DNA of 64,000 nt from Acidobacteriota bacterium (GCA_022711715.1 JAKLEC010000001.1:33500-97499); one strand, 5' to 3'; numbered from the stretch's first letter, positions 1 through 27,138 are shown. The notes: generated from the sequence alone by a model not told the origin. Translations and numbers: made by a program.

Positions 1-294
1 TTCCAGGGGGTCGCCCGCCGCCCCGGCCCCGGCCTCGGCCAGGAGGAGCGCTCCCAGGCGGTTCTGTTCCTCCTTGGCATGGCGGTACGGGTCTTCGAGT
101 CCGGTCAGGGCGCGCAGGCGGCGATGGATGCGCTGGCCCATGAGCGGCGGCGGCTGGGACAGGTCCATGCCCGAGGTCCAGCGCAGCATGTCGCGCAGGA
201 TGCCTTCATGCAGCGCCGGATCGCGGCTGGTCAGGCGCGCCGCGTCCAGCGCCTGGCGGATGAGGCAGGGAATGCAATCCAGCTGCGTCCTCAT
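1..294 (-). CDS. DUF89/ARMT1-like family protein, N-terminal 98 aa (gene runs off window start)
   Basis: Minus-strand ATG at 294 gives MRTQLDCIPCLIRQALDAARL..., a CxPC N-terminal motif resembling DUF89 proteins. Not in ORF track because it is edge-truncated. Confidence 0.4.
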   Translation of the reverse strand, partial: MRTQLDCIPCLIRQALDAARLTSRDPALHEGILRDMLRWTSGMDLSQPPPLMGQRIHRRLRALTGLEDPYRHAKEEQNRLGALLLAEAGAGAAGDPLE

Positions 295-333
295 GGTCGT
301 GCCGGCTGCGGTCGCGCCGGGAAGGCCGCGCCG

Positions 334-672
334 TCAGTGGTCGCAGACGTTTTGCCCCGATTTCAGGGTGCCGGCCAGCCAGGCGGCGACCAGGGTTTCC
401 GGGGACTCGGCCGGAGCGCCGATGATCACCTCGATACCGTGCTCGCAGAACAGCGCCTGGGCGCGCTGGCCCATGCCGCCGGCGATGATCAGCTTCGCTC
501 CGCGCTCAGCGAGCCAGCGGGGCAGCAGTCCGGGCTCGTGGGGCGGGGCATCGAGGTCCTCACGCTTCACGATCCGCTTCTCCTTGGTGTCGGTTTCGAC
601 CAGGGCGAAACTGGCGCAATGACCAAAATGCATGGACAACTTTCCGTCGGACAGGGGAATGGCGATCTTCAT
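334..672 (-). CDS. MTH1175/NifX-NifB-like dinitrogenase FeMo-cofactor-binding domain protein (copy 1)
   Basis: 112 aa MKIAIPLSDGKLSMHFGHC...LIIAGGMGQRAQALF, typical small NifX/NafY-fold protein. Translationally close to upstream mrp. Confidence 0.8.
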   Translation of the reverse strand: MKIAIPLSDGKLSMHFGHCASFALVETDTKEKRIVKREDLDAPPHEPGLLPRWLAERGAKLIIAGGMGQRAQALFCEHGIEVIIGAPAESPETLVAAWLAGTLKSGQNVCDH

Positions 673-706
673 GGTGTTTTCTCCTTGGGTACGGCTTTTT
701 CGGAAA

Positions 707-1630
707 TCACTTCGCTTCCGCCTCGAGGGCCTGCAGCGGGGCGATGATGCCGCGCATGACCGCCGCCGTGGGCGAGTCGGCGAAGGTGCGCACGTATGGC
801 CGTCCGTCGTCGCCGGAGGCGGCGATGGCCGGATCGATGGGGATCGACCCCAGGAAGGGCACGTTCATGCTCTCGGCAATGCCGCGGCCGCCCCCACGGC
901 TGAAGATGGGCGTCACCTCGCCGCACTTGGGACAGGCGAAGCCGCTCATGTTCTCCACCACGCCGAGCACGGGGATGCCGAGCCGGCGGCAGAAGGTGAT
1001 CGACTTGCGCACGTCGACGGCCGCCACCTTCTGCGGCGTGGTGACGATCACTGCTCCGGTGATGCCGGGGATGAGCTGGCAGACCGAGAGCGGCTCGTCA
1101 CCCGTTCCCGGCGGCGAGTCGATAACCAGCCAGTCCAGGTCGCCCCAGGCGACGTCCATGAGGAACTGCTTGATGGCTCCCATCTTCAGCGGGCCGCGCC
1201 AGATGACGGCCTCGTCGGGATGGGGCAGCAAGAAGCCCAGCGACATGACGGCGATGCCGCCGGCGTCGGCGGGCAGGAGCCCGTCGGGCCCGCTGTCCAG
1301 CGTCATGCCCTCCAGACCCAGCATGGTGGGGACGCTCGGGCCGTGGATGTCCACGTCGAGCAGGCCGACGCGGCGGCCGACGGCGTGCAGGGCGGCGGCG
1401 ATGTTCACCGCCACCGTGCTCTTGCCGACGCCGCCCTTGCCGGAAAGGACCACGATCTTGCGGCGGATGCGGCACAGGCGCGACTCGAGCCGGCGGCGCT
1501 CGGCGAACTCCTGGTCGTTCTCGTTGCTGCGGCGGCTGGCGGCCGAGCACTCCTTGTTGCCGCAGGCGTCGCAGGCGCTCGGCCCGGCCTCCCGGGCGGC
1601 GCCGGGGTCTTTCCCGTTCTTGTTTTCCAT
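707..1630 (-). CDS. apbC: Mrp/NBP35/ApbC family Fe-S cluster carrier ATPase
   Basis: [10 protein letters not shown] Walker A, CPKCG motif, VVENMS signature. Cys-rich N-terminal tail. Confidence 0.85.
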
Positions 1631-1639
1631 GGGTGTCTC

Positions 1640-2512
1640 CTAAAGCTGCAGATTATTCCATATGGCGCGGATGTCGTCCACGCAGGGCGCGTCGGTCTCG
1701 ACCACGGCCCGCTCGCGCAGCTGCGCCGCGGTCACGCCGGCGTCGTAGCGCACGCGGCCGGCGAGCCGCGCCCCGGCGGCGGCGGCCTTGGCCTCGATGC
1801 GCTCCGTCATCTCCGGGTTCAAATCCCATTTGTTCACGCACGCGGCCACCGGGACCTGGAAGTGGCGGGCCAGGGAGAGCACCCGCTCCAGGTCGTGCTC
1901 GCCGGAGACGGTCGGCTCGGTCACGGCCAGCACCAGCGAGGCGCCGCTGAGCGAGGCGATCACCGGGCAGCCGATCCCCGGCGGGCCGTCGACGATGATC
2001 CGTTCCCGCTTCTCCTCCTCGGCCAGGCGTCGCGCCTCGCGCCGCACCAGGGCCACGAGCTTGCCCGAGTTCTCTGCGGCCGCCTTCAGCCGAGCGTGGA
2101 CCATGGAGCCGCAGCGGGTGTCGGAGACCAGCCACTCGCCGCAGAGGCATTCGGGAAAGTCGATGGCCTGGGCGAGGCAGGAGCGGACGCAGACCCCGCA
2201 GCCTTCGCAGCCGATGGGGTCGACGCGAAAGACCGGGGTACCGTCGGGGCGGGCCGCCATGGCGATGGCGGCGAAGCGGCAGAGCTCGGCGCACAGGCCG
2301 CAGCCCGTGCAGTCAGCGGGTCGGATCAGCGCCTGGCGGCCGCTGACGAAATCGTGCCGCTCGCGCGGCCGCGGCGCCAGCACCAGGTGCAGGTCGGCGG
2401 CGTCGACGTCGCAGTCGGCGACCACGGCGTCGCCGGCCAGCACGGCGAACGAGGCGGCGAGGCTGGTCTTGCCCGTTCCGCCCTTGCCGCTGAGCACGAC
2501 CAGTTCCCTCAT
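1640..2512 (-). CDS. MinD/ParA-superfamily P-loop ATPase with inserted 2x[4Fe-4S] ferredoxin domain
   Basis: LSGKGGTGKTS deviant Walker A. Two CxxCxxCxxxC motifs (CTGCGLCAELC, CEGCGVCVRSC). Confidence 0.8.
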   Translation of the reverse strand: MRELVVLSGKGGTGKTSLAASFAVLAGDAVVADCDVDAADLHLVLAPRPRERHDFVSGRQALIRPADCTGCGLCAELCRFAAIAMAARPDGTPVFRVDPIGCEGCGVCVRSCLAQAIDFPECLCGEWLVSDTRCGSMVHARLKAAAENSGKLVALVRREARRLAEEEKRERIIVDGPPGIGCPVIASLSGASLVLAVTEPTVSGEHDLERVLSLARHFQVPVAACVNKWDLNPEMTERIEAKAAAAGARLAGRVRYDAGVTAAQLRERAVVETDAPCVDDIRAIWNNLQL

Positions 2513-2775
2513 TTATCCTTCCCGCAAGCCGGTTCGCCGCAGGGCTCACCGCGGCCGCAACAGGTGCGGCCGGTGCGCTGAAGCGAGCAGTCCGCCCCTC
2601 CCCGCGCCGGCGCCTCCTTTCCGCCTCCCTTCACGATGAAACCGGCACCGCCGCTGACGACGCGATGCACCCGTCCCCGGCACTGCGGGCAGCGGGTCAG
2701 GGGCGCGGCGCTGATGGGCTGCATCTTCTCGAACCGGGAACCGCATGCTTCGCACTCATATTCATAGGTCGGCAT
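2509..2775 (-). CDS. FmdB-family zinc-ribbon putative regulatory protein
   Basis: MPTYEYECEACGSRFE...CPQCRG, canonical FmdB CxxC-CxxC ribbon. 4-bp overlap with downstream ATPase. Confidence 0.8.
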   Translation of the reverse strand: MPTYEYECEACGSRFEKMQPISAAPLTRCPQCRGRVHRVVSGGAGFIVKGGGKEAPARGGADCSLQRTGRTCCGRGEPCGEPACGKDK

Positions 2776-2778
2776 GGC

Positions 2779-3618
2779 TCATCCTCCTTGGCCGCCGAGC
2801 AGCGTGTCGGCGAGCCCGGAAAAAAGGGCACGATACTCAGGCACGGCGTCGAAGACCAGCCGGCCGCGGGAATAGGCCTCGGCGATGCGCCGGTCGTCGG
2901 CGATCTCCATCATGATGGCGATGCCGGCCTCCCGGCAATAGCGGTGAACACGGTCGTCCCCGGCCCCGGCGCGGTTCAGGACCACGGCGAAGGGCTGGGC
3001 CAACTCGCGCAGGGTGTCCACCGCCAGCTGCAGGTCGTGCAGCCCGAAGGGGGTGGGCTCGGTGACCAGCAGGACGAAGTCGGCGCCGCGCACGGCGGTG
3101 ACCACCGGGCAGGACGTGCCGGGCGGGGCGTCAATCACGGCGGGCAGCGAGGGATCGAGGCGGCGTTTGACCTCGCGGATCAGCGGCGGCGCCAGCACCG
3201 AGCCCACGTCCAGTCTGCCCGTCACCAAGGCGATGTCTCCCGCCTGCCGCCTTTCCACCATGCCGATGCGCCGGGGAACCTCGCGGATCGCCTGCCGCGG
3301 GCACACCCTCGGGCAGCCGCCGCAGCCGTGGCACATTTCGGCGAAGACCAGCGCCTTGGTGCCGGTGGAGACGATGGCGTGGTAGGCGCAGAAGCGGCTG
3401 CACTCACCGCAGCCGTCGCACCGCGACTCGTCCACCTCGGGGACCGGGATGGTGGCGACCTCGGAGGCCGCCTCGGTCCCGGGCAGGAACAGGTGGGCGT
3501 TGGGTTCCTCGACGTCGCAGTCGAGGAGCTGCAGCGGACGGGCGTAGGCGCGGGCCAGGTTGACGGCCAGCGTCGTCTTGCCCGTGCCGCCCTTGCCCGA
3601 GGCGATGGCCAGGGTCAT
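2779..3618 (-). CDS. MinD/ParA-superfamily P-loop ATPase with 4Fe-4S ferredoxin insert (paralog)
   Basis: Start taken at internal MTLAIASGKGGTGKTT (ATG 3618). The upstream 144 codons of the track ORF overlap the DUF5320 gene and are not coding. CDGCGECSRFC and CHGCGGCPRVC motifs. Confidence 0.75.
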   Translation of the reverse strand: MTLAIASGKGGTGKTTLAVNLARAYARPLQLLDCDVEEPNAHLFLPGTEAASEVATIPVPEVDESRCDGCGECSRFCAYHAIVSTGTKALVFAEMCHGCGGCPRVCPRQAIREVPRRIGMVERRQAGDIALVTGRLDVGSVLAPPLIREVKRRLDPSLPAVIDAPPGTSCPVVTAVRGADFVLLVTEPTPFGLHDLQLAVDTLRELAQPFAVVLNRAGAGDDRVHRYCREAGIAIMMEIADDRRIAEAYSRGRLVFDAVPEYRALFSGLADTLLGGQGG

Positions 3619-3890
3619 GGCCGGTCTCTCGATCCGCAGGAGCCGGGAAGCCTGCCTTCGCCTTCCAGCCGCCGCAGGCGGGCGCGCAGCGAAGCGATGC
3701 CGTCTCGCAGCGCCTGCAGGCGAAGGCGCAGCGAATGCAACCCCGGGGCCGCTGTCTCCTCCCCGACCGGCCCGGCAAAGACGGCCTGGGGACCGCCGGC
3801 TCCATCGGGCAGGTTCATCAGACAGTAACCGTGTCCATGGCCACTCATGGGCCCCTGCCCGCGGGGCCCGGTTCCATCGAATCCCGGCAT
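3615..3890 (-). CDS. DUF5320 family protein (MPGFDGTGP...coiled-coil C-term)
   Basis: N-term MPGFDGTGPRGQGPMSGHGHGYC matches DUF5320 MPxxDxTGP motif. C-terminal LRLRLQALRDGIASLRARLRRLE coiled coil. ATGA overlap with next gene. Confidence 0.7.
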   Translation of the reverse strand: MPGFDGTGPRGQGPMSGHGHGYCLMNLPDGAGGPQAVFAGPVGEETAAPGLHSLRLRLQALRDGIASLRARLRRLEGEGRLPGSCGSRDRP

Positions 3891-3916
3891 GCGTCACCTC
3901 CTGTTCGCGAACGGCG

Positions 3917-5614
3917 CTAGCGCTCCCTGGGAAAAGGCCAGGCCGCGATGCCGCCCTCCATGACCTTGACGTTCTTCCAACCGTTGGCCTCCAGGACCAG
4001 CGCCGCCTCGTAGCCGCGCAGCGAGATCTTGCAGAAGCAGACGATCTCGGCATTCTTGTCCTGGGGCAGCTCGGCCAGCCGCTTGCGCAGGGCGCCGAGC
4101 GGGATCAACCGCTCGCCGATCCCCAGGCGCATGGCCTCGAACTCGTCGGGCCCGCGCACGTCGAGAAGAAACAGCGGTTCGCCGGCCTCGACCTTCCTCT
4201 TGACCTCCATGGCCGAAATCCCCTTGAGCCGGCCTTTCAGCTTGTTCTGCATCAGATGGGCGGTGGCGATGAAGTGGTCGATGGCCAGGGAAAAAGGCGG
4301 GGCGTATGGCAGGTCGGCGTTGACGACGTCCTCGACGCCCAGCTTGCCCAGCACGGCCATGGCCCATTCGGCGACCTGCCGCGACACGTCGCCCGGGCCC
4401 ACCACCTGGGCGCCCAGGATGCGGCCGTTGGCCCTGTCCACGACCAGCTTGCTGACCAGCAGCTTGCCGTTCATGAAGCCGGGCTTGTCCAAGCTGGCGT
4501 TGATCACCGTGTCCACGTCGCGGCCCGCTTCGCGGGCGCTGCGCTCGTTCAGCCCGGTGGTGCCGGCCTTGAAATCGAAGATCTTGCAGATGCCGGTCTG
4601 GATGGTGCCGGGGAAGGAAACGACATTGCCCAGCACGGCGTTCTCGCCGGCGACGCGGCCCTCCAGATTGGCCAGGTCACCGTAGGGGGCGTGGTTGCTG
4701 CGGCCGGTGATACGGTGGGGGATCTCGATGCAGTCGCCGGCGGCGTAAATGTCGGGGTCGGAGGTCTGCATGAACTCGTTGACCAGGATGCCCCCCTTCG
4801 GGCCCAGGGCCAGCCCGGCCTCGCGCGCCATCCGGCTGTTGGGCTTCACGCCCACCGCCAGCACGGCGAGTTCGCAGGGGAGCTCCGTGCCGTTGCTCAG
4901 CTTGACCCCGGTCAGCTTCCCGTCCTGGCCCAGGAAGGCGGCCAGGCCATTGCCGGTGATCACGTTTACCCCCTTGCTGCGCACGTGGGCCTCGACCAGC
5001 TCGGCCAGCTCCCAGTCCAGGAAGGTGAGCAGCTGCGGCAGCAGCTCGATGACCGTGATTTCGATGCCGGCCAGCTGCAGCGCCTCGCAGGTCTCGATGC
5101 CGATCAGACCGCCGCCGATCACCACGGCCTTCTTGATCGTCTTCTCGTCGCGCACCCGGCGCAGGAAATCGGCGTCTTCCATCCCCTGCAGGGTGGTGAT
5201 GCCCTTCAGGTCGCCGCCGGGAACGGGGGGGATGTTGGGCAGGGCGCCGGTGGCCAGGATCAGCCGGTCATAGGGGAGCGTTTCCTCCTGGCCGGAAGCC
5301 AGGTCGCGGACGCGCACCGCCTTGGCGGCGCGGTCGATGGCCAGCGCCTCGGTGTTCGTGCGCGCCCGGATGTTCTTGGCGTTCATGTAGTAGACGGGAT
5401 CGCGGACCACGCCGGTGGGGGTGCAGAGCAGCATGTTGCGGTCGTCGAAAAAGCCGCCGACGTAATAAGGATAGCCGCAGGAGGCCATGGAGAGGTCCTT
5501 CCCCTTCTGCACCAGGGTGATGTCGGCCCGCTCGTCGAGCCTCCTGGCCTTGGCCGCGGCCTTGGGGCCGGCGGCCGAGCCGCCGATGACGATGATCTTT
5601 TTGTTTTTGGACAT
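3917..5614 (-). CDS. CoA-disulfide reductase / NADH oxidase-type FAD-dependent pyridine nucleotide-disulfide oxidoreductase with C-terminal rhodanese domain (CoADR-RHD)
   Basis: KKIIVIGGSAAGPKAA FAD motif, VVIGGGLIGIE NAD motif, AAGDC. C-terminal FLLDVRGPDEFE...CKISLRG rhodanese active-site Cys. Confidence 0.85.
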   Translation of the reverse strand: MSKNKKIIVIGGSAAGPKAAAKARRLDERADITLVQKGKDLSMASCGYPYYVGGFFDDRNMLLCTPTGVVRDPVYYMNAKNIRARTNTEALAIDRAAKAVRVRDLASGQEETLPYDRLILATGALPNIPPVPGGDLKGITTLQGMEDADFLRRVRDEKTIKKAVVIGGGLIGIETCEALQLAGIEITVIELLPQLLTFLDWELAELVEAHVRSKGVNVITGNGLAAFLGQDGKLTGVKLSNGTELPCELAVLAVGVKPNSRMAREAGLALGPKGGILVNEFMQTSDPDIYAAGDCIEIPHRITGRSNHAPYGDLANLEGRVAGENAVLGNVVSFPGTIQTGICKIFDFKAGTTGLNERSAREAGRDVDTVINASLDKPGFMNGKLLVSKLVVDRANGRILGAQVVGPGDVSRQVAEWAMAVLGKLGVEDVVNADLPYAPPFSLAIDHFIATAHLMQNKLKGRLKGISAMEVKRKVEAGEPLFLLDVRGPDEFEAMRLGIGERLIPLGALRKRLAELPQDKNAEIVCFCKISLRGYEAALVLEANGWKNVKVMEGGIAAWPFPRER

Positions 5615-5623
5615 GGGTACTCC

Positions 5624-6193
5624 TTACCCTGAGTTTTTTTCCTGACGGCGGGACGGTCTCTTCCCTTGGGCATGCCGGGACGGAAGGCGGCGTATTCCCC
5701 GCCTGCGTGCGGTCGCCTCGTCGACCTCTTCCTGCCAGCCGCTGCGGCAGGCGGCGACGCGGTCGAAGCGGGCAATATAGGGCTTGATGTCAAGCAGCGG
5801 CGTGCCGTCCAGGATGTCGCCGCCTTCGATGTGCAGCACCGATCCCTCGCGGCCGAGAAGCCGGACCAGGCTCAGGCCGATGGCGTTGGGGCGGCGGGGG
5901 GAGCGGGTGGCGAACACCCCCCGTTCGGCGTCCTGCAGGAAAGGGCGGACCGACAGTGCGGCGGCTGCGGCGCGATGAAAATGGTATAGCAGGAAGATAT
6001 GGGAGAATCCCTCCAGGTCGCGCAGTCCGGCGGCGAATTCGCCGGCCACTTCAACCCGCCCCCGGCACGCCCGGGCGTAGACCGGTTGGATGGGCGTCTG
6101 TTCGGGATCGACATGCCCGCTGCGGATCACGCCGATGGCACGGAAGGCGATGGCCGCCTTGCCGGGCAAGGGCCGGGTTTTTGCGGGGTTCAC
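5624..6193 (-). CDS. tsaA: TsaA/YaeB-family SAM-dependent tRNA methyltransferase
   Basis: GFSHIFLLYHFH and LDIKPY motifs of UPF0066/TsaA. Confidence 0.75.
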   Translation of the reverse strand: MNPAKTRPLPGKAAIAFRAIGVIRSGHVDPEQTPIQPVYARACRGRVEVAGEFAAGLRDLEGFSHIFLLYHFHRAAAAALSVRPFLQDAERGVFATRSPRRPNAIGLSLVRLLGREGSVLHIEGGDILDGTPLLDIKPYIARFDRVAACRSGWQEEVDEATARRRGIRRLPSRHAQGKRPSRRQEKNSG

Positions 6194-6549
6194 CAGTGGC
6201 CCTGAACGTCTGCGCCAGAGGATTCCTTCAACTCACCCGCTTTGTACTTTGCCACGGCATCGGCGATGGTAGCGGCGTCACTGGCATAAATCTTGACCCC
6301 GGCGGCGGCGAGGACGCGGAAAGCCTTGGGGCCGCAATGCCCGCTGACAAGTGCTTTCGCACCGGAACGGACCACTGTTTCAGCGGCTTGGATGCCCGCG
6401 CCCTGGGCCGCGGCCAGGTTTTGCTGGTTGTCAATAATTTCGAAACTTTGGTTTTCCAAATCATAGATTAGGAACTTGGAAGCCCGGCCGAAACGGCTTT
6501 CCAGCGGTGCGCTCACGTTGTTACCCGATGTAGCAAATGCAATTTTCAT
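6190..6549 (-). CDS. MTH1175/NifX-NifB-like FeMo-cofactor-binding domain protein (copy 2)
   Basis: MKIAFATSGNNVSAPLESRFGRASKFLIYD...ALVSGHCGPKAF, NifX-like fold. Preceded by AAGGAGG RBS. Confidence 0.8.
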   Translation of the reverse strand: MKIAFATSGNNVSAPLESRFGRASKFLIYDLENQSFEIIDNQQNLAAAQGAGIQAAETVVRSGAKALVSGHCGPKAFRVLAAAGVKIYASDAATIADAVAKYKAGELKESSGADVQGHW

Positions 6550-6618
6550 AAAATATCCTCCTTGCTTGTCAGTCCATGGCAGCTTGCCGGCGCCGGCCGC
6601 GTGCGTGCTGGCCTCGCA

Positions 6619-7338
6619 CTATTTTTTTTTGATAGTGCTTAAAACCTTATCCTTATCGATTTTTTTGGTGCAGAAGAACCAGTCGTGGCAGGTGACGCCC
6701 GCCTCCTTGCCCTCCATGCGCTCCTTGGCCACGCCGCAGGAGCCGGCGGTGGGCACGATGACGTCGTCGCCCGGGCGCCAGTCGGCCGGGGTGGCCACGC
6801 CGAAGGAGTCCGCCGTCTGCAGCGCCTGCAGCGCGCGCAGCAGCTCATCGAAGTTGCGGCCCATGCTCAGCGGGTAGTAGATGATGGTGCGGATGACGCC
6901 CTTGGGGTCGATGAAGAAGACGGCGCGCACGGCCTTGGTCGAGCTCTCGCCCGGCTGCATCATGCCGTATTTGTGAGCCACTTCCATGGTGATGTCCTCG
7001 ATCAGCGGGAACTTCACCTCGACGTTCTTCATCCCCTTGTAGTCGATCTTCTCCTTGATGATTCGCAGCCAGGCGATGTGGCTATACAGGCCGTCGACCG
7101 ACAGGCCGACCAGCTGGCAGTTCAGTTCGGCGAACTGGTTCTCCAGGGTGGCGAAGGTCATGAACTCCGAGGTGCACACCGGGGTGAAGTCGGCCGGGTG
7201 GCTGAACAGGATGATCCACTTGCCGGCGTACTGCTCGGGAAAGTTGATCTCGCCCTGGGTGGTGACGGCCTTGAACGAAGGAGCCTTGTCGCCGATGCGC
7301 GGCATCACGCCGCTTTGTGTTTCTTTGTTTGTTTCCAT
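6619..7338 (-). CDS. 1-Cys peroxiredoxin (Prx6/AhpC-TSA family), copy A
   Basis: FTPVCTSE peroxidatic Cys motif. ~88% nt identical over ~700 bp to 26423-27133. Start could alternatively be Met12 (MPRIGD). Confidence 0.85.
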   Translation of the reverse strand: METNKETQSGVMPRIGDKAPSFKAVTTQGEINFPEQYAGKWIILFSHPADFTPVCTSEFMTFATLENQFAELNCQLVGLSVDGLYSHIAWLRIIKEKIDYKGMKNVEVKFPLIEDITMEVAHKYGMMQPGESSTKAVRAVFFIDPKGVIRTIIYYPLSMGRNFDELLRALQALQTADSFGVATPADWRPGDDVIVPTAGSCGVAKERMEGKEAGVTCHDWFFCTKKIDKDKVLSTIKKK

Positions 7339-7377
7339 TGTCTTCTCCTTTTATTTCTATTTAAACAAGAATGGCTG

Positions 7378-7821
7378 TTAATTATAAGACGCTTTGATCT
7401 CCGGCGCTTCCAGGAAAAGGGGCTTGGCCAGTTCCTCCATGTTGCTCTCTTTCCAGAAGGGCAGCTTGGCATGGTCATCCATGTATTTCTGCGGGATGGG
7501 ATGGGTGCCGATGATCACCGGCAGGCCGTACGCGGCCTCGATGAAGGCCTTGAAGCGACGGATGTTGGGGCAGGGCGGATAGCCTACCACCAGCCCGGTG
7601 GCCAGGTGAACGGCCGTGGCGCCGTTCTTCTTGAACTCTGCCGGCACGTATTCCACGTTACCGCCCGGACAGCCGCCGCAGGTCGAATAGCCGACGACCT
7701 CCACTTCCTCTTCTCTGGAGTAAATGGAAAAGGCACCGACCCTCTCGCGTATTGCCCGGAAACATTTGCCGCCTCCGCAGTCCTTGTAGCGGGCGCAGAT
7801 GATGATGCCAATCTTGGTCAT
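7378..7821 (-). CDS. CGGC domain-containing protein
   Basis: KDCGGGKC and YSTCGGCPGG motifs of PF08821. Confidence 0.75.
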   Translation of the reverse strand: MTKIGIIICARYKDCGGGKCFRAIRERVGAFSIYSREEEVEVVGYSTCGGCPGGNVEYVPAEFKKNGATAVHLATGLVVGYPPCPNIRRFKAFIEAAYGLPVIIGTHPIPQKYMDDHAKLPFWKESNMEELAKPLFLEAPEIKASYN

Positions 7822-7863
7822 AAAAAATCTCCTGGTTCCCGGATCCGGGCCCCACCGGGAACC

Positions 7864-8229
7864 CTACTTCGTTTCGCCTTCCGTGTCCAGTTCCTCGAGG
7901 CGCTTGCGGATGGCATCCAGCTCGCCCTGCATGGCGTCTGCCTGGGCCTTCAGCGATCTTTTCTCGCTTTCAGGATCCGGGAAGAAATCGGGCGCCGGAA
8001 CGCCGTAGCGCATCCACCCCGGCTGGCCCGTCGTGTAGAAGCGGTTGCGCCAGCCGCGGCCGCCGCCGCCGAAGCCGCGGGCCCAGGCGCCGCGCCCCCT
8101 GCCCAGGCCGAAGCCGCGGCCAAAAGCCGGGTTAGCATATCCGGGCATGGCGAAGCCTGCGCAAAATCCGGCCCCACGGCCGGTCATGGGCCCCAGTCCA
8201 TTGGGCCCCGTCCTGTCTCCTCTCGGCAT
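7864..8229 (-). CDS. DUF5320 family protein (Gly/Arg-rich middle, coiled-coil C-term)
   Basis: MPRGDRTGPNGLGPMTGRGAGFCAG N-term. C-term LDAIRKRLEELD. Confidence 0.75.
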   Translation of the reverse strand: MPRGDRTGPNGLGPMTGRGAGFCAGFAMPGYANPAFGRGFGLGRGRGAWARGFGGGGRGWRNRFYTTGQPGWMRYGVPAPDFFPDPESEKRSLKAQADAMQGELDAIRKRLEELDTEGETK

Positions 8230-8256
8230 GGTTACCTCCTTGTATTTCCTATTTTT

Positions 8257-8883
8257 CTATTCCCGGACCATGGCCGTGCCGCACTGGGGGCACTGTCGCC
8301 TCACGCAGGGAACGCCCCTCTCGTGCGCCAGCCGCTGGCCGCATTTCGGGCAGACACAGTTGCCGACCGCGCCCGCGGCTACCGGGCCGCCTATGCGGCC
8401 GCGCCCCTGTCCGGCGCCTTGCCGGCCCATGCCCCCCCCCAAGCCGCGGCCTTGCCCGCGGCCTCCGCCAAAACCTCCGCCTCCTTGTCTTCTTCCGTTC
8501 ATGAAGCGATCCTCCTCGAGGAGCGCGCGGCAGCCGAATCGCCGGCAGCCGGGCATGAAAAAGCGGCTCGCGGGAAGCTTTCCCGCCGTCCAGGCCTCGA
8601 TCACCTCGGCAAGATCGCCGGAAACAAACGGGATCACCCGGATACCCGATGATGCGATCATTGCCTGCAGGGGCCGGGAAATCGCCCCGCAAACCAGGAT
8701 CTCGACGCCCAGCTCGCGGAGGCGCAGCGCTTTCTGCATGGGCAAGGGCAGATCCAACCCCTCGCGCTGCCGGCGGATGACGCGGCCGGCTCCGGCTTCG
8801 ACCATGAGAACCTGGCGGGCTGAGTCGAATACCGGCGCGATGCGCTCTTCCCAGCACGAGAATGCCGTTTTTACGCTTGCCAT
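8257..8883 (-). CDS. MTH1175/NifX-like domain fused to Gly-rich linker and C-terminal CxxC-CxxC zinc ribbon (copy 3)
   Basis: Start chosen at MASVKTAF (ATG 8883) behind AAGGA SD and the sigma-54 promoter. NifX-like LGVEILVCGAISRP core. GGGFGGGRGQGRG linker. CPKCG...CPQCG ribbon. Confidence 0.65.
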   Translation of the reverse strand: MASVKTAFSCWEERIAPVFDSARQVLMVEAGAGRVIRRQREGLDLPLPMQKALRLRELGVEILVCGAISRPLQAMIASSGIRVIPFVSGDLAEVIEAWTAGKLPASRFFMPGCRRFGCRALLEEDRFMNGRRQGGGGFGGGRGQGRGLGGGMGRQGAGQGRGRIGGPVAAGAVGNCVCPKCGQRLAHERGVPCVRRQCPQCGTAMVRE

Positions 8884-8907
8884 ACGCATTCCTTCATGAA
8901 CGTCCAT

Positions 8908-8924
8908 GCAATGACGATGCCAAG
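8908..8924 (-). promoter_or_regulatory. Candidate sigma-54 (-24/-12) promoter TGGCAT-N5-TTGCA
   Basis: Minus-strand read CTTGGCATCGTCATTGCATGG. GG and GC spaced exactly as in the TGGCAC-N5-TTGCA consensus. 25 bp upstream of ATG 8883. rpoN and an EBP gene are in the window. Confidence 0.45.
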
Positions 8925-9042
8925 CTCCCGGCAACGGAGGTGGGATCGTTTAGATTGCCGATGGCAAATGACTTTTCGTGATGCTGCTTGTAACGCGACG
9001 TACAGGAATGAGTAGCGTTTTGGCTACCCTCCATGATAGCCG

Positions 9043-9057
9043 CATTGCGGCAATGCG
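9043..9057. promoter_or_regulatory. Perfect 15-bp palindrome GCATTGCGGCAATGC, candidate enhancer (UAS) for the sigma-54 activator
   Basis: Lies ~120 bp upstream of the -24 element, the classic EBP enhancer distance. Just 3' of the activator stop codon. Confidence 0.35.
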
Positions 9058-9059
9058 AC

Positions 9060-10433
9060 CTATTTGGCTGGTGAACGGCGACCGGGGAGAGACAGGCCCA
9101 GCTGACGGATGCGGCGGAAGAGGGTGGTCTTGTGGATGCCCAGTTCGCGGGCCGCCGCGGCGCGGCTCCCTCCGTGGCGCTCGATCGCAGCGCGGATAGC
9201 TTGGGCGTCGAGAACGTCGTGGGCCGCGCGCATGCCGGGACGGTCCGTCCCGGCATGCAGGGCGGTCAGCTCGGCGGGCAGGTGCTCGACGCCGATCTCG
9301 CCGACGGAGCAGAGGATGAAGGCGCGTTCGATGACGTTCTCCAGCTCGCGGATGTTCCCTGGCCAGTCGTGGGCCATCAGCAGCGCCAGCGTCCCGGCCG
9401 ACATTCCCTGGACGGCCTTGCCTTGCAGGCGGTTAAAGCGCTCGATGAACTGCCCGGCCAGCAGGGGAATGTCCTCCCGGCGCCGGCGCAGCGGCGGCAG
9501 CTCGAGGCGCACGACGTTAACCCGGTAATAGAGGTCCTCGCGGAAGTCACCCGATCGCATGCGTTCGGCCAGGTCACGGTTGGTAGCGGCGATGACGCGG
9601 GCATCGGACGTTTCGGAACGGGTCGCTCCCAGTGGATCGAAGGCGCGGTCCTGCAGGACACGCAGCAGCTTCACCTGCAGCGGCGTGCCGATCTCGGCGA
9701 TCTCGTCCAAAAAAATGGTGCCGCCGCGAGCCATGGCGAAGCGGCCAGGTTTGTCGCGGTCCGCACCGGTAAAAGCCCCAGCCTTGTAGCCGAAGAGCTC
9801 GGATTCGAGCAGTGTTTCAGGCAGCGCGCCGCAGTTGACGGCGACGAACGGGGCGCGGTTACGCGGGCTGAGGGCATGGATGGTGCGGGCCACCAGCTCC
9901 TTCCCCGTTCCCGTCTCGCCCAGGATCAGGACGGTGCTGGGGCTGGCGGCGACAGCGGGCAGAACCTCGAATATCCGCTGCATGAGGGGGCTGCGCGAGG
10001 CCAGGTCGCCGACGCGGTATTTTCCCTGCAGCTCCTGGCGCAGCGCCTCGACCTCGGAGAGGTCGCGAAAGGTCTCGGCACCGCCGATCACGCGCCCCGC
10101 CGCGTCGCGCAGCAGGGCGGTCGAGACGCTGATGGCGATGCGATTGCCGCCTGCATCCACGATGTACCCGGACTTGCCGATGATCGGACGACCCGATTGC
10201 AGGGTCCGCTTCAGGGCGCATTCGGCCCCGCACATGCTGGAACGGAACACATCGGAGCATCTCCGGCCGATCGCCTCCCGGCGCGGCACACCGGTGATCC
10301 GCTCAGCGGCGCGATTGAACGACGTGACCCGCCATTCCGCGTCGACCGTGAACACGCCGTCGGAAATGCTTTCCAGAATGGAGTCCGTGCAGGCCAGGGG
10401 ACTCCGACTTCGTTTGGCTTGTCCGCTGCTCAC
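9060..10433 (-). CDS. Sigma-54-dependent Fis-family transcriptional activator (PAS sensor - AAA+ sigma54 interaction - HTH)
   Basis: PAS N-term. GETGTGKE Walker A. GAFTGA loop. ESELFGY. C-terminal Fis HTH (TTLFRRIRQLGL). No receiver domain. Confidence 0.9.
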   Translation of the reverse strand: MSSGQAKRSRSPLACTDSILESISDGVFTVDAEWRVTSFNRAAERITGVPRREAIGRRCSDVFRSSMCGAECALKRTLQSGRPIIGKSGYIVDAGGNRIAISVSTALLRDAAGRVIGGAETFRDLSEVEALRQELQGKYRVGDLASRSPLMQRIFEVLPAVAASPSTVLILGETGTGKELVARTIHALSPRNRAPFVAVNCGALPETLLESELFGYKAGAFTGADRDKPGRFAMARGGTIFLDEIAEIGTPLQVKLLRVLQDRAFDPLGATRSETSDARVIAATNRDLAERMRSGDFREDLYYRVNVVRLELPPLRRRREDIPLLAGQFIERFNRLQGKAVQGMSAGTLALLMAHDWPGNIRELENVIERAFILCSVGEIGVEHLPAELTALHAGTDRPGMRAAHDVLDAQAIRAAIERHGGSRAAAARELGIHKTTLFRRIRQLGLSLPGRRSPAK

Positions 10434-10528
10434 GAGCGCTTTTTTGGCGAGTACGCGGGCGGTGCGTCGTCCCGGCGCCCCGTCAGCGGGCCCGAGACGC
10501 CGGGCCCCATCCTGTCTCCTCTCGGCAT
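10430..10528 (-). pseudogene. Truncated DUF5320 N-terminus (32 codons) abutting the sigma-54 activator start
   Basis: MPRGDRMGPGVSGPLTGRR then stop. 10505-10545 (incl. RBS) near-identical to 8203-8245, the start of the intact DUF5320 gene. Stop overlaps activator ATG (ATGA). Confidence 0.5.
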
Positions 10529-10584
10529 GTTCACCTCCTGTTCATCGATCCCCCGCCGCTGCGGCGGCCGGCAGAGGAATTGAG

Positions 10585-10820
10585 CCCAGGGAAGGCAGAG
10601 GGAGGAGAGAGGGAAGAATGAGGGAAGTGAGAGTGGGAAAAGCCATGTCATGAATTATTCCCACTTTGTCTTCCCCTTGTCTTTCCCTCTGCATTTCCCT
10701 CTCTCTTCCCTGGAGCCTGGAACTTCACATTTCAGCCTGCCATACGCCGTCAGCAGAACGCCTTGCGCCAAGGTCTTTCGGCTTCCCGTACGCCGTATGC
10801 CGTCCACCGTACGCCATCTT
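10585..10820. repeat. GA-rich/CT-rich long inverted-repeat module plus CCGTACGCCGTATGCCG module
   Basis: GGGAAGTGAGAGTGGGAA ... TTCCCACTTTGTCTTCCCC hairpin. Related copies at 36130-36240, 36510-36640, 38885-38935, 40375-40440. Tail shares CGTACGCCGTATGCCG with 23265-23290 and 40500-40850. Confidence 0.7.
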
Positions 10821-11191
10821 CAATGGCAGCCGTGATGGTGCCGGCAGGCGTCGCCGGGCTGGAACAGGGGGAGACGACCGGCCTGGAACTCCTGCAGCGC
10901 CTGGCCCACCGTGGTCGGGCCCTCGGCCAGGTAAACGGAGATGCCGATCTCGTTCAGCTTCTGCACGGCGCGCATGCCCATCCCCTGGCAGGCTACCGCC
11001 TGGACGCCCCGCTCGCTCAGGCCGGAGGTCGGCTGGCATTGGCCGTGGGCGTGCTCGTGCTGGCCGTTGTCCACGGCCTCGAAAGCTCCGCTGTCGGCAT
11101 CCACCACGGCGAAGATCGGCGCGCTGCCGAAATGGCCGTACAGCTCGGAATCCAGCCCCTGGTCGGTCTCGATCGGGAAAGCAATCTTCAT
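10820..11191 (-). CDS. MTH1175/NifX-NifB-like FeMo-cofactor-binding domain protein (copy 4)
   Basis: MKIAFPIETDQGLDSELYGHFGSAPIFAVVD...VACQGMGMRAVQKL, His/Cys-rich C-term. Confidence 0.8.
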   Translation of the reverse strand: MKIAFPIETDQGLDSELYGHFGSAPIFAVVDADSGAFEAVDNGQHEHAHGQCQPTSGLSERGVQAVACQGMGMRAVQKLNEIGISVYLAEGPTTVGQALQEFQAGRLPLFQPGDACRHHHGCH

Positions 11192-11640
11192 TGTGTTTCT
11201 CCTTGCGTTGATTGGCTACGTTCATGGACGCGCCGGCCCGCGCCGGCTCGGCCGGTGCCGCGGCGGCAGGCAGGGCAGCGGGCGGGCGGCGGCGCGCCCG
11301 CATCCTGTCGCCAGCGATGGCGGCAGGAACCGCAGACGAATTCCCCCTCCCCGGCCTGCACGGCGCTGCCGGCGATGCGCAGCACCTTGCCGTTTACCAG
11401 GCAATCCGCGGTCTTGCGCCGGGCGGCGGCCACCACATTGCCGAAGGTCTGGCGCGAGACGCCCATGCGCGCGGCGGCCTGCTCGTGGTACAGTCCCTCC
11501 AAGTCGGCCAGGCGCAGCGCCTCGAGCTCGTCCAGTGCCAGCGCCACTTCAGGAAGATCCCTGGCGGGGATCCCGGCCGGCTTGAAGAGCGTGGCGTCGG
11601 GCACGAATCCCACCCGCCGGCACTTGCAGGGCCTAGGCAT
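11188..11640 (-). CDS. DUF134/UPF0251 family putative DNA-binding protein
   Basis: MPRPCKCRRV N-terminal signature of DUF134. Sigma-70 region-4-like HTH. C-terminal CGSC...CPAC. First gene of the minus-strand cluster. Confidence 0.75.
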   Translation of the reverse strand: MPRPCKCRRVGFVPDATLFKPAGIPARDLPEVALALDELEALRLADLEGLYHEQAAARMGVSRQTFGNVVAAARRKTADCLVNGKVLRIAGSAVQAGEGEFVCGSCRHRWRQDAGAPPPARCPACRRGTGRAGAGRRVHERSQSTQGETQ

Positions 11641-11707
11641 GAGCGGTTTCCATTATTAGCATATGCCAATTATAATACTATCGCTGGGAAAAAGCAACTA
11701 CTTCAAT

Positions 11708-11850
11708 AAGGAAAAAGTAAAAAGGTAAAAGGAAAAAGTGAAAACCCCAATATGAATTTTTCGGAACCGAATCTATCGAACCGGACGCGGGCCTGCGAGC
11801 CATTGCCCGCAATCTTACTTTAACCTTTTACCTTTTTCCTTTTACCTTGC
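11708..11850. repeat. ~25-bp inverted repeat (AAGGTAAAAGGAAAAAG arms) flanking an ~85-bp core
   Basis: Arms at 11713-11735 and 11823-11848 are reverse complements. Third copy of GTAAAAAGGTAAAAGG at 38958-38985. Confidence 0.6.
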
Positions 11851-12479: not shown

Positions 12480-12830
12480 TGGCTCATATTATAGTATAAA
12501 TCTGACATATAGCCAAATCTTGCAGGGGATATCCGAGCAATCGTGACGCGTGACGCGTAACGCGTGACGAGTAAACGCACAACCAGCTATCGTGATTCGT
12601 GATTCGTGATTCGGAACAGCATAGTTCGGCCATGCTGTTGCTAACACAAACACTAACACCAACACGTAGCGCCCGGCAATTACCTTCATGCTGACACTGA
12701 CACTGTCACTGACACTAATTTTTATTGAATGCCGTACGCCGAGGTCCGCGTCCTGTCTCTTGTCACGCGTCACGCGTTACGCGTCACGAAGATCGTGCAA
12801 CTATGATCGACACCCGGCCGTCTTATATGG
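12480..12830. repeat. Composite intergenic repeat cluster: (TGACGCG)n, (ATTCGTG)n, (AACACW)n, (CTGACAC)n modules
   Basis: Same module types recur at 14845-15060, 21395-21545, 23330-23430, 30489-30520, 41135-41230, 46940-47030, 60400-60500, in both orientations. Confidence 0.8.
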
Positions 12831-12858
12831 TACAGTATGCAAGGAACGACCCCTTCCC

Positions 12859-13794
12859 ATGTTGAAGCATATGCAGGCGAATGAGCGGATCCAGGGCGAT
12901 GACCGCGCCGTAGAGGGCAGGACCCGGCGGCGGATCGTCGTCCTCTCCGTCCTGCTGCACATGCTCCTGCTCGCCGCCTGGAACTCGGCGCTGGTGCTTG
13001 ACTGGGCGGCGCTGCTGCCGGTCGCCCCCGCCGTGCCGGCGAAGGCCGCGCCCCTGGTATTCGACCTGCAGCCGCCCGACCTTCCCCGCGAGGTGATCGC
13101 CACCCCGGACGACGCCCGCACCGCCAGGGCGCCGCGCGACGCCGATTTCCTCTCCGACAAAAACGCCCTGGCCCGCGACCAGGAGCCGGCGCCGGGACTG
13201 CCCGTGACCGGCGCCCCCTTCTCCCGCGGCGACCTGCCCAGCCACAGCATCCCCGTCCCGCCCCCCTCCCCCGAGCGGCGGGAACGGCCGGAGCCGGAGC
13301 GCCGCAGCCCCGAGACCGGCCGCGAGAGCGAAACCCCCGACCTGGACCTCGATCCCGCCGGCCAGGCCGCCCCTCCGGCCGGCAGGCCGGCCCAGCCCCC
13401 CGGCCGCCCCTTCCGCTTCGACCTGCCGGAGGCGCCGCACCGCCAGCTGGAGGGACGCGTCGGCGAGGAGGGCGGACTCTCGTTCAACACCTACGACTGG
13501 GACTTCGCCCCCTACATGCTGGCCCTGAAGCGGCGCATCGGCGGCAACATCTTCCCGCCCCTGGCCTACAGCATGCTGGGCATGATCGACGGCGACACGC
13601 GGCTGCGCTTCAAGATCTACCCCGACGGCCGCCTGGCCGACCTGGAGCTGCTGGGCTACAGCGGCCACCGCACCCTGATGGAGACCAGCCGCTCGGCCAT
13701 CACCGTCTCGGCCCCCTTTCCCGCCCTGCCGGCCGACTTCCCCAAGCCGTACCTGGAAGTGACCGCGCGCTTCACCTATTTCGTGCGACGCTAA
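12859..13794 (+). CDS. tonB: TonB family energy transducer (Pro-rich linker + TonB C-terminal domain)
   Basis: Start at MLKHMQ (12859). Upstream track residues are translated repeat. TM helix, PxPxP/EPEP-rich spacer, C-terminal TonB fold. Confidence 0.7.
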   Translation: MLKHMQANERIQGDDRAVEGRTRRRIVVLSVLLHMLLLAAWNSALVLDWAALLPVAPAVPAKAAPLVFDLQPPDLPREVIATPDDARTARAPRDADFLSDKNALARDQEPAPGLPVTGAPFSRGDLPSHSIPVPPPSPERRERPEPERRSPETGRESETPDLDLDPAGQAAPPAGRPAQPPGRPFRFDLPEAPHRQLEGRVGEEGGLSFNTYDWDFAPYMLALKRRIGGNIFPPLAYSMLGMIDGDTRLRFKIYPDGRLADLELLGYSGHRTLMETSRSAITVSAPFPALPADFPKPYLEVTARFTYFVRR

Positions 13795-13806
13795 GCGAGG
13801 AGCACC

Positions 13807-14436
13807 ATGAAGAACATCCTGGATTTCCTGGTCAAGGGCGGCATCATCATGATCCCCCTCTTCCTGTGCTCGGTCACCGCCCTGGCGGTGGTGATCGAGA
13901 AATCGGTCACGCTGCGCCGGCGGCGGATCATCGTCCCCGAGGTGGTCAGCGTGCTGGACAACGTCAAGGGAGCCGGCGACTTCGCCCTGGCGCTCGCCGT
14001 CTGCGAGAAGCACCGCGGCTCCTTCGCCAACATCGCCCGCCTGGCGCTGGAGAACCGCGCCCTGCCCCGCGAGGAGCTCAAGGAGTCGCTGGGCGACCAG
14101 GGGCGGCAGGAGGTGCACCGGCTGGGCCGCGGGCTGGGGGTGCTGGAGACGGTCGCCGGCATCGCCCCGCTGCTCGGGCTGCTGGGCACGGTGCTGGGCA
14201 TCCTGAAGGTCTTCAAGGTCATCGCGGTGATGGGCGTCGGCCAGGCGGCGGCGCTGGCCGGCGGCATCTCCGAGGCGCTCATCACCACCATCGCCGGCCT
14301 GTTCATCGGCATCCCGGCGCTGGTGGCCTACAACTACTACTCGGACCGGACCGAGTCGCTGGTCCTGGAGATGGAGAACCACTCCAACCGCCTGCTGAAC
14401 AAGATCCACGCCCTGCAGCCGGGCGCGGAGGGCTGA
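13807..14436 (+). CDS. exbB: MotA/TolQ/ExbB proton-channel protein
   Basis: Three TM helices. GLLGTVLGI and ISEALITTIAGL motifs. Confidence 0.85.
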   Translation: MKNILDFLVKGGIIMIPLFLCSVTALAVVIEKSVTLRRRRIIVPEVVSVLDNVKGAGDFALALAVCEKHRGSFANIARLALENRALPREELKESLGDQGRQEVHRLGRGLGVLETVAGIAPLLGLLGTVLGILKVFKVIAVMGVGQAAALAGGISEALITTIAGLFIGIPALVAYNYYSDRTESLVLEMENHSNRLLNKIHALQPGAEG

Positions 14437-14437
14437 G

Positions 14438-15060: not shown

Positions 15061-15104
15061 GGGGATGCTATCATGACACCGGGATTCCGGTCGCGAATCA
15101 CGAC

Positions 15105-15821
<717 letters not shown>

Positions 15822-15824
15822 GCC

Positions 15825-17787: not shown

Positions 17788-17803
17788 CGCCGGGAGGCCG
17801 CCC

Positions 17804-27133: not shown

Positions 27134-27138
27134 TTTGC

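Follow-up and report, generated by a model that had tools for sequence, protein, structure and literature searches.

A probable ORP (orange protein) gene cluster with an OrpR-type activator in an Acidobacteriota bacterium

The orange protein (ORP) system of Desulfovibrio vulgaris Hildenborough (DvH) is encoded by two divergent three-gene operons, orp3-orp4-orp5 and orp7-orp8-orp9, that flank the regulatory gene orpR (DVU2106) (PMC3897727, PMC6345978, PMC8359166). Orp3 and Orp4 are MinD-like ATPases with two [4Fe-4S] motifs, Orp5 is a small [2Fe-2S] protein, Orp8 is the orange protein itself, with the NifX/MTH1175 fold, and Orp9 is MrpORP, an Mrp/NBP35 ATPase fused to a NifX-like Di-Nase domain (PMC6345978). 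MrpORP is a demonstrated Fe-S carrier that passes Fe-S to Orp3/Orp4 (PMC6345978), and ORP carries a Mo-Cu cluster, [S2MoS2CuS2MoS2] (cited in PMC6345978). Membership of the ORP complex, control by sigma-54, integration host factor (IHF) and OrpR, and the [4Fe-4S] redox-sensing PAS domain are known from experiments in Desulfovibrio (PMC8359166, PMC3897727, PMC6345978). Here we describe positions 1-11640 of a 64-kb stretch of DNA (the window) from an uncultured Acidobacteriota bacterium, a region that is most probably an ORP gene cluster of the DvH kind, arranged as a single long one-directional operon with lineage-specific additions.

The G+C content of the window is 65%, so spurious open reading frames (ORFs) are abundant, and domain calls were backed by Pfam, NCBIfam, the PDB or a structure model. 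On the minus strand, 1-11640 is a compact row of real genes with small gaps or overlaps. A first-pass annotation of the same DNA had counted 19 consecutive minus-strand features here; their strand, place and contiguity hold, and the count is 18. Pfam supported the domains it had named, apart from two DUF5320 features recognized by motif: Nitro_FeMo-Co in all four NifX-fold proteins (three at 72-78 bits and NifX3 at 34), two ferredoxin-inserted ATPases, Mrp/ApbC, DUF134, CGGC, a CoA-disulfide reductase (CoADR)-rhodanese fusion, a 1-Cys peroxiredoxin, TsaA, an FmdB ribbon and a PAS-containing sigma-54 activator. For comparison, 80 genomic loci were fetched through the activator, and the counts below use the 47 with at least 8 kb downstream; individual loci carry L numbers (L001 onwards).

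ORP-type genes in the window

The genes that correspond to the ORP system are the following.

334-672, minus strand: NifX1, stand-alone counterpart of the MrpORP Di-Nase domain (Pfam PF02579, 75.9 bits)
707-1630, minus strand: Mrp/NBP35-type (ParA/NUBPL, Mrp/ApbC) Fe-S carrier ATPase (Pfam PF10609, 331 bits)
1640-2512, minus strand: MinD/CbiA-type ATPase with inserted 2x[4Fe-4S] ferredoxin domain, Orp3/Orp4-like copy A (Pfam CbiA and Fer4_7/Fer4)
2509-2775, minus strand: FmdB/Zn_ribbon_8 small Cys-rich protein, 88 residues, 9 Cys (Pfam PF09723, 61.9 bits; TIGR02605, 72 bits)
2779-3618, minus strand: MinD/CbiA-type ATPase with inserted 2x[4Fe-4S] domain, Orp3/Orp4-like copy B (Pfam CbiA and Fer4_6/Fer4)
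6190-6549, minus strand: NifX2, ORP/Orp8 homologue, MTH1175-like single domain (Pfam PF02579, 77.9 bits)

The assignment to the ORP family draws on NifX2, a split MrpORP, the ATPase pair, the activator signature, the regulatory DNA and synteny. The best PDB match of NifX2 was the D. gigas ORP (2WFB, E 2.3e-18 over 111 residues), with TM1290 and MTH1175 next, and the other three NifX paralogues gave 35 bits or no match to 2WFB. The third-position GC of the NifX2 gene is 0.63, low against 0.74-0.94 in the neighboring genes.

Mrp alone scored 371 bits to the MrpORP equivalog NF041136 (positions 2-252) and 239 bits to the ApbC model, while NifX1 scored 131 bits to positions 265-365 of NF041136, where the other NifX paralogues reached 34 and 28 bits. 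An artificial join of Mrp and NifX1 gave 507 bits over positions 2-365 of 365, with a cutoff of 450. As the joined score passes the cutoff and the two halves match complementary parts of the model, we read the pair as a split MrpORP. No single fused polypeptide is encoded: the two genes are separated by a 34-bp gap, and the 371 bits of Mrp alone fall below 450. Fused and unfused MrpORP forms are intermixed in phylogeny (PMC6345978). NifX1 carries HFGHC, PPHEPGLLP (PPHxPGxxP) and a C-terminal CDH, and HFGHC, PPHxPGxxP and CDH are the motifs reported for the MrpORP Di-Nase domain (PMC6345978); Mrp carries the deviant Walker A GKGGVGKS, CPKC and an N-terminal CxxCxxxxC. The deviant Walker A, the CxxC bridging-cluster motif and the ApbC score are shared with the Mrp/NBP35/ApbC/Cfd1 carriers in general, but the window protein scores much higher to MrpORP, has the Cys motif at its N-terminus and is paired with a NifX-like partner of its own. 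The metallocluster-handling role put forward in the first-pass annotation gains support here, because the Mrp-NifX1 pair scores as a demonstrated Fe-S carrier (PMC6345978).

Two paralogous P-loop ATPases with Fer4 dicluster domains are present, as described for Orp3/Orp4 in PMC6345978, and they form an adjacent pair in 28 of the 47 related loci. The start of copy B was mapped to 3618 and not to the long-ORF start, its ATG overlapping the upstream stop (ATGA). The Zn_ribbon_8 gene sits between the two ATPase genes and accompanied every ORP-MinD-ferredoxin module that had been fetched as far as that position; from this we infer a candidate Orp5 counterpart.

The region does not fit the earlier statement that such clusters are known only bioinformatically and are functionally uncharacterised, since the cluster corresponds to the experimentally studied ORP system (PMC8359166, PMC3897727, PMC6345978). 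With DvH it shares the ORP-like NifX-fold protein, the two MinD-type 2x[4Fe-4S] ATPases, a small Cys-rich protein (in the window, the candidate Orp5 counterpart) and the MrpORP-type carrier; a PAS-AAA+-helix-turn-helix activator with C-x8-C-x3-C (and D/E), whose gene adjoins those it controls; palindromic sites ahead of a sigma-54 promoter; and restriction to anaerobes. It differs from DvH in that MrpORP is split into two genes. Its additional genes encode the CGGC and TsaA proteins, the NifX protein whose IssA-like tail ends in a Cys ribbon, the peroxiredoxin duplicate, the CoADR-rhodanese fusion and DUF89, as well as the DUF134-NifX pair. The host organism is uncultured, and the activator family reaches well beyond the Deltaproteobacteria.

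The activator and its regulatory DNA

The regulatory elements, with the gene for the matching sigma factor, are listed here.

8907-8922, minus strand: sigma-54 (-24/-12) promoter, TGGCATcgtcaTTGCA (motif scan and conservation)
9012-9059, no strand assigned: two tandem palindromic predicted activator sites (upstream activating sequences, UAS; motif from related loci)
9060-10433, minus strand: OrpR-type enhancer-binding protein, PAS, AAA+ (GAFTGA) and HTH_8 (Pfam PAS, Sigma54_activat, HTH_8)
10436-10534, minus strand: 32-codon mini-ORF, DUF5320 N-terminal remnant (sequence reading)
10654-10683, minus strand: sigma-70-like promoter upstream of the mini-ORF and activator gene (consensus scan, 9/12, weak alone)
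15825-17228, plus strand: rpoN, sigma-54 (Pfam Sigma54_AID/CBD/DBD)

The PAS domain of the activator contains C59-x8-C68-x3-C72 and Asp61. The Cys triad was invariant in 195 of 195 activator homologues, 194 of which have D or E at position 61. In OrpR, C52/C61/C65 and D/E54 bind a redox-sensing [4Fe-4S] cluster (PMC8359166), and because the two patterns are equal we assign the window protein to the OrpR type, a comparison based on the signature and not on direct alignment to DVU2106. Homologues of the activator number in the thousands, and the best 120, from many phyla, are 73-98% identical over the full length. OrpR has been described as confined to Deltaproteobacteria (PMC8359166). This view looks too narrow, as the activator loci come from many phyla, among them Omnitrophota, Zixibacteria, Planctomycetota, Acidobacteriota, Verrucomicrobiota, Spirochaetia and Desulfobacterota.

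The promoter and the UAS both fall in the 170 bp that separate the activator gene from the operon it faces. The sequence at 8922-8907 is the sole match in the window to TGGCAC-N5-TTGCW at up to one mismatch, and the first operon gene follows ~20 nt downstream. The UAS at 9012-9027, GTAGCgttttgGCTAC, is the sole exact match in the window, and that at 9044-9059 has one mismatch; measured from the -24 element, their centers lie 97 and 129 nt farther upstream, and both sites are perfect in L084, the closest relative. In the related loci the consensus is GT[ACT]GC-N6-GC[AGT]AC, usually in two copies directly past the activator stop codon, the proximal one at a constant ~94 nt upstream of the -24 element. 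A sigma-54 element stands at the same place in 33 of the 47 intergenic regions between activator and NifX3 gene (shuffled sequences, 0.7), and the exact palindrome in 23 of the 47 (shuffled, 0.14). The weight of these elements comes from position and conservation rather than from counts in the window. Together with rpoN in the window, they bear out the sigma-54 control that had been proposed for the cluster. A second sigma-54-like match at 3751-3736 was not taken as a promoter: it is inside the second DUF5320-like gene, has two mismatches and has no UAS.

The rpoN gene encodes the sigma factor that the promoter requires and belongs to an lptB-rpoN-hpf-hprK-ptsI array. This classic rpoN neighborhood (14982-21205, plus strand; lptB-like ABC ATPase, rpoN, hpf, HPr kinase and PtsI) begins ~3.3 kb from the cluster, and a second phosphotransferase-system multidomain gene (HPr-EI-EIIA) is found at 55020-57539.

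Downstream of the promoter the genes are separated by gaps of 0-69 bp, with several overlapping stop and start codons. The terminator scan was at chance level, and all its minus-strand matches were inside genes. Given these short gaps, the overlapping codons and the lack of a convincing terminator, a single transcript of ~9 kb from the NifX-ribbon gene (NifX3) to at least the DUF89 gene would be the simplest conclusion.

On the other side of the activator, the mini-ORF at 10436-10534 (MPRGDRMGPGVSGPLTGRRDD...) has 32 codons, a strong ribosome-binding site and a stop codon that overlaps the GTG start of the activator gene. It gave no Pfam match and is kept in L084 and in no other locus; it is read as a gene remnant that may have been reused as a translational coupling leader. 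The orpR gene of DvH is also driven by sigma-70 (PMC3897727). Two long imperfect inverted repeats of purine-rich ~11-nt units (AGGGAAGnnnG; AAGGTAAAAGG) were noticed at 10586-10713, overlapping the sigma-70-like promoter of the activator, and at 11708-11848, upstream of DUF134. Both are kept in L084; curved DNA, a terminator and a mobile relic are possibilities for them.

Several points weigh against reading the region as an ORP cluster of the DvH kind. The margin of NifX2 for ORP over TM1290 and MTH1175 is small, and the proteins most similar to the D. gigas ORP are found in modules without an OrpR-type activator. The layout is not that of two divergent three-gene operons flanking orpR but a one-directional operon of ~14 genes. 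The activator has GAFTGA where DVU2106 has GAFTDA. The window UAS, GTAGC-N6-GCTAC, differs from GGGCGC-N5-GCGCCC of DvH; the DvH OrpR site GGGCGYRTTTTGCGCCC had no match in the window at up to three mismatches, and the IHF consensus WATCARNNNNTTR had none at up to one mismatch in 8900-9070, so that no IHF site is recognizable there. Counts of the promoter and UAS motifs in the window alone are at chance level. Orthology to the DvH genes rests on signatures, the NCBIfam equivalog and the D. gigas ORP structure, and that the genes are co-transcribed, respond to redox state and encode a complex is in each case something we infer. Even in Desulfovibrio, the role of the ORP complex has been called unclear by its authors (PMC8359166).

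Conserved core and lineage-specific additions

In dozens of loci across many phyla, the activator is accompanied by the same gene order: activator, NifX-ribbon, DUF5320, (CGGC), ORP-like NifX, (TsaA), (DUF89), MinD-ferredoxin, (ribbon), MinD-ferredoxin, (Mrp), NifX. Such recurrence shows that the arrangement is not due to chance. By tBLASTN, which underestimates short proteins, NifX3 was present in 42 of the 47 loci, the ORP-like NifX in 30, the ATPase pair in 28, DUF5320 in 26 (as the second operon gene in most related loci), a NifX1-like gene in 22 and Mrp in 13. The most constant partner of the activator is the tailed NifX protein, not an ATPase. DUF89 (12 of 47), TsaA (6) and CGGC (5) are variable accessories; CoADR was found in 6 loci, for example L021 and L040, and the peroxiredoxin in 2.

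The additions in the window are as follows.

1-333, minus strand: N-terminal part of a DUF89/ARMT1-like phosphatase gene, truncated by the window start, last operon gene seen (Pfam PF01937, 43.8 bits; synteny)
3917-5614, minus strand: CoA-disulfide/persulfide reductase-rhodanese fusion (Pfam Pyr_redox_2 and Rhodanese)
5624-6193, minus strand: TsaA/TrmO N-terminal-domain protein (Pfam PF01980, TrmO_N, 137.7 bits; TIGR00104, 116 bits, cutoff 93)
6619-7338, minus strand: Prx6-type peroxiredoxin (Pfam AhpC-TSA and 1-cysPrx_C; NF009668, 331 bits)
7378-7821, minus strand: CGGC-domain Cys-rich protein (Pfam PF08821, 95.6 bits)
10820-11191, minus strand: NifX4, His/Cys-rich NifX-fold protein (Pfam PF02579, 71.7 bits; PDB TM1816/PH0822)
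11188-11640, minus strand: DUF134 putative DNA-binding protein with C-terminal Cys4 extension (Pfam PF02001, 71.1 bits; weak helix-turn-helix matches)
11655-11670, no strand assigned: CATATG-centered palindrome ATTAGCATATGCCAAT, candidate DUF134 operator (unique in the window)

The operons of L081-83 (activator identity 84%) keep this gene order and lack the peroxiredoxin, CoADR-rhodanese, DUF134-NifX4 and DUF89 genes; in L084, a contig of 87% nucleotide identity, CoADR is present and the peroxiredoxin absent. Loci without ATPase genes were also observed (L003, L012, L013, L019 and L020), in which the trio activator-NifX3-DUF5320 is followed by a radical-SAM-like (FGPVPSRRLGRSLG...CxxxCxxC) or metallo-beta-lactamase-fold gene; these followers hint at other cargo for the same regulator. 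A 217-residue protein encoded upstream in L097 has ankyrin repeats and is unrelated to NifX3.

The NifX4-DUF134 pair upstream of the activator recurs in L030, L032, L050, L075 and L084 and is predicted to be co-transcribed as its own unit. The palindrome at 11655-11670, for which 0.11 occurrences were expected in the window, has a TATAAT-like box on one side and the DUF134 start codon on the other. Comparable palindromes directly precede the DUF134 genes of five unrelated loci (L084, L095, L050, L075 and L032), which suggests autoregulation of DUF134 through the candidate CATATG operator. Four loci with D. gigas ORP homologues contain ORP-MinD-ferredoxin-MinD-ferredoxin-NifX-Zn_ribbon modules without an OrpR-type activator, and in at least one case DUF134 is encoded upstream of such a module. 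On this ground DUF134 may be an alternative regulator of ORP-type genes.

Outside the cluster, a 584-codon ORF at 12823-14577 (minus strand) is very likely spurious, being antisense to a MotA/ExbB gene (13807-14436) and having a low-complexity translation; it illustrates how poor a guide to real genes ORF length is in DNA this rich in GC. Tandem repeats of 7 nt (CGTGACG variants) are found at 12536-12607, between a gene for a 194-residue lipoprotein-like protein and the ExbB/ExbD region. Rfam and tRNA scans gave no matches.

Possible functions of the cluster

The first-pass annotation saw a dedicated metallocluster or persulfide trafficking system and took the CoADR-rhodanese and the peroxiredoxin as hints of a link to thiol or persulfide redox state; in a persulfide or thiol-redox trafficking system the two would be integral parts. 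Both genes are inside the operon with short gaps, and the CoADR-rhodanese is nearest to persulfide/polysulfide reductases: its best PDB matches are 6PFZ (E 7e-139), 3NTA (Npsr), 3ICR and 8A56, all over the full length, and its translation contains the catalytic-Cys motifs SMASCG and CFCKISLRG. It shares the two-domain architecture of Npsr, CoA-persulfide reductase and the A. fulgidus NoxA-3, and clearly belongs with the persulfide reductases. It is, however, optional. Embedded in an ORP operon, an unusual context for Npsr-type fusions, it is absent from L081-83 and from 41 of the 47 loci, so that a persulfide link would be at most lineage-specific. The peroxiredoxin proved no better as a functional pointer. 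The stretch 6623-7305 is 92% identical in nucleotides to a second gene 19 kb away (26423-27313, minus strand) over 683 bp, coding sequence only; the operon gene is thus a recent internal duplicate inserted into the operon. The window segment 6550-7426 corresponds to 69 bp in L084, and the gene is also missing in L081, the next closest relative. A foreign origin, considered from the low GC at 6.5-8 kb, was dropped as the third-position GC (0.89) is host-like, and composition gives no evidence either way. With two lineage-specific genes as its pointers and a conserved core without a sulfurtransferase, dedicated persulfide trafficking is not the best reading of that core and is very unlikely.

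A MinD-like positioning system for cell division, in which metalloproteins would regulate and the ATPases would act at the poles or the membrane, was first proposed for the DvH ORP complex. Reported in DvH are morphological defects on OrpR inactivation, a polar location of MrpORP and amphipathic helices at the C-termini of Orp3/Orp4 (PMC8359166, PMC6345978). The window ATPases do have deviant Walker A motifs and weak matches to the MinD model, but these score 36-46 bits, far under the cutoff of ~200, and the Pfam scan showed no minC/minE or fts genes in the cluster. Many related loci moreover have the activator with NifX3 and DUF5320 but no ATPase, and the DvH authors themselves call the role unclear; we consider this function decidedly unlikely. 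Mo/W thiometallate handling, or a relic of nitrogenase-type cofactor maturation, would suit the four NifX-fold proteins, the [S2MoS2CuS2MoS2] cluster bound by ORP (cited in PMC6345978) and the structural matches to NifX bound to NifEN and to NafY. The fold is that of NifX, NafY and the NifB C-terminal domain (Foldseek: NifX in 9IAN, NafY 1P90), at an identity of 14-22%. Yet, as the first-pass annotation had stated, nitrogenase is missing: unlike the setting of the nitrogenase cofactor carriers, no nifHDK, nifEN or nifB was found among the main, Pfam-scanned ORFs of the 64 kb or in the loci of the closest relatives. Neither the scanned ORFs of the window nor the loci of those relatives showed mod/tup transporter or molybdopterin genes, and the MrpORP Di-Nase domain binds an Fe-S cluster and not Mo (PMC6345978). 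This explanation is highly improbable.

An iron-sulfide storage and delivery module refines the ORP reading rather than excluding it. The comparison is with IssA, the thioferrate iron-sulfur storage protein of Pyrococcus furiosus, in which an IPR003731 domain is joined to an unstructured tail that is cationic and rich in glycine and aromatic residues (pI 10.7, ~20% aromatic), and with 'IssX', an uncharacterised mesophile clade with glycine-rich, high-pI tails (PMC5524996). Three window genes are concerned.

3615-3890, minus strand: second DUF5320-like protein (DUF5320b), 91 residues (sequence motif)
7864-8229, minus strand: DUF5320 protein (DUF5320a; Pfam PF17253, 92.4 bits)
8257-8883, minus strand: NifX3, NifX fold, linker and C-terminal ribbon, first gene past the sigma-54 promoter (Pfam Nitro_FeMo-Co, 34 bits, cutoff 26.3)

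The NifX3 start was placed at 8883. Its weak Pfam call was confirmed by a structure model: residues 1-110 had an AlphaFold2 pLDDT above 90 and a Foldseek TM of 0.83 to PH0822, followed by TM1816, MJ0327, NifX, ORP and NafY. Residues 115-171 had a pLDDT below 50, and the disordered Gly/Arg/Gln linker is 39% Gly with a pI of 11.9; for the whole tail the values are pI 11.2, 28% Gly, 18% Arg+Lys and 3% aromatic. The C-terminal ribbon, CxCPxCG...H...C...CPxCG, has six invariant Cys and one His in the family alignment. This is the ribbon that the first-pass annotation had seen fused to NifX and had called a zinc ribbon; with six Cys and one His it could equally bind an Fe-S cluster. Among the DUF5320 proteins named there, DUF5320a stands by Pfam, DUF5320b by motif only, and the mini-ORF at 10436-10534 is a mere 32-residue remnant. 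Residues 1-75 of DUF5320a have a pI of 11.9, 31% Gly, 15% Arg+Lys, 16% aromatic and one Cys, and its C-terminus is acidic and coiled-coil-like. DUF5320b was recognized by the MPGFDGTGPRGQGPMSG motif and has an N-terminal MPGFDGTGPRGQGPMSGHGHGYC and then a coiled-coil-like C-terminal stretch; its orthologue in L081 gave a weak PF17253 match, and the window copy had no NCBIfam match.

At low redox potential and with ample sulfide and iron, the NifX-ribbon protein and the DUF5320 proteins of such a module would bind anionic, thioferrate-like polymers of Fe-S, and Mrp and the MinD-ferredoxin ATPases would mobilize them into clusters. The IPR003731 globular domain and the disordered cationic, glycine-rich, high-pI tail of NifX3 are shared with IssA/IssX, the tail described for IssA (PMC5524996) also resembles residues 1-75 of DUF5320a, and for both systems expression under reducing, sulfide-rich conditions is expected. 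Of the genes under the activator, those for NifX3 and DUF5320 were taken as the most conserved (42 and 26 of 47), and a Gly/Gln/Arg-repeat protein accompanies the ORP module in L095 as well. The likeness is compositional only, however: the NifX3 tail, unlike that of IssA, is poor in aromatics and ends in a structured Cys-rich ribbon undescribed for IssA, and it is the separately encoded DUF5320 that carries the cationic segment rich in glycine and aromatics. No NifX-DUF5320 fusion was found among ten longer DUF5320 proteins, all of which were DUF5320 only, and no experimental link of ORP systems to thioferrate is known. We regard the storage module as possible, if unlikely. A wider proposal would make the activator, tailed NifX and DUF5320, from Planctomycetota to Acidobacteriota, the conserved heart of the system and a bacterial, low-redox-induced module for iron-sulfide storage and delivery, analogous to archaeal IssA, with DUF5320 as a free-standing IssA-type tail, the ORP complex handling inorganic Fe-S and not cell division, and DUF134 as a metallocluster-responsive repressor at the CATATG operator; taken as a whole it is rather unlikely. 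In L095 and L096 the ORP module is preceded by DUF134 and a 112-residue Gly/Gln/Arg-repeat protein (8414-8752 in L095).

For the ORP cluster itself, a working sequence of events can be proposed. The activator would be made from its own sigma-70-like promoter, and its PAS domain would hold a [4Fe-4S] cluster on Cys59/Cys68/Cys72 and Asp61, as its signature suggests; the cluster itself has been seen in DvH OrpR. Bound to the palindromes at 9012-9059, sites placed by position and conservation like the promoter, it would at low redox potential drive ATP-dependent opening of the promoter at 8922-8907, a redox logic carried over from DvH. The ~9 kb transcript would then begin with the NifX-ribbon gene and extend at least as far as DUF89. 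By homology to DvH, Mrp and the detached NifX1 would load Fe-S clusters onto the two MinD-type ferredoxin ATPases, which with NifX2 and the small Cys-rich ribbon protein would form the ORP complex, and the remaining NifX-fold and glycine/arginine-rich proteins may hold or pass anionic metal-sulfide species. The peroxiredoxin, CoADR-rhodanese, TsaA, CGGC and DUF89 proteins would be add-ons under the same low-redox control in this lineage, and DUF134-NifX4 a separate small operon with its own operator.

The cluster gives names to widespread 'hypothetical' genes of anaerobes, including the split MrpORP, and its promoter, UAS and operator sequences are now concrete for testing. The persulfide and peroxide enzymes are recruits, both recent and optional. 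The redox-sensing activator is strongly conserved (53-98% identity) across many anaerobic phyla and not in the Deltaproteobacteria alone, and the ATPases, the basis of the cell-division idea, are less constant beside it than the tailed NifX-fold protein and DUF5320. The comparison across phyla steers experiments toward Fe-S or metal-sulfide handling.

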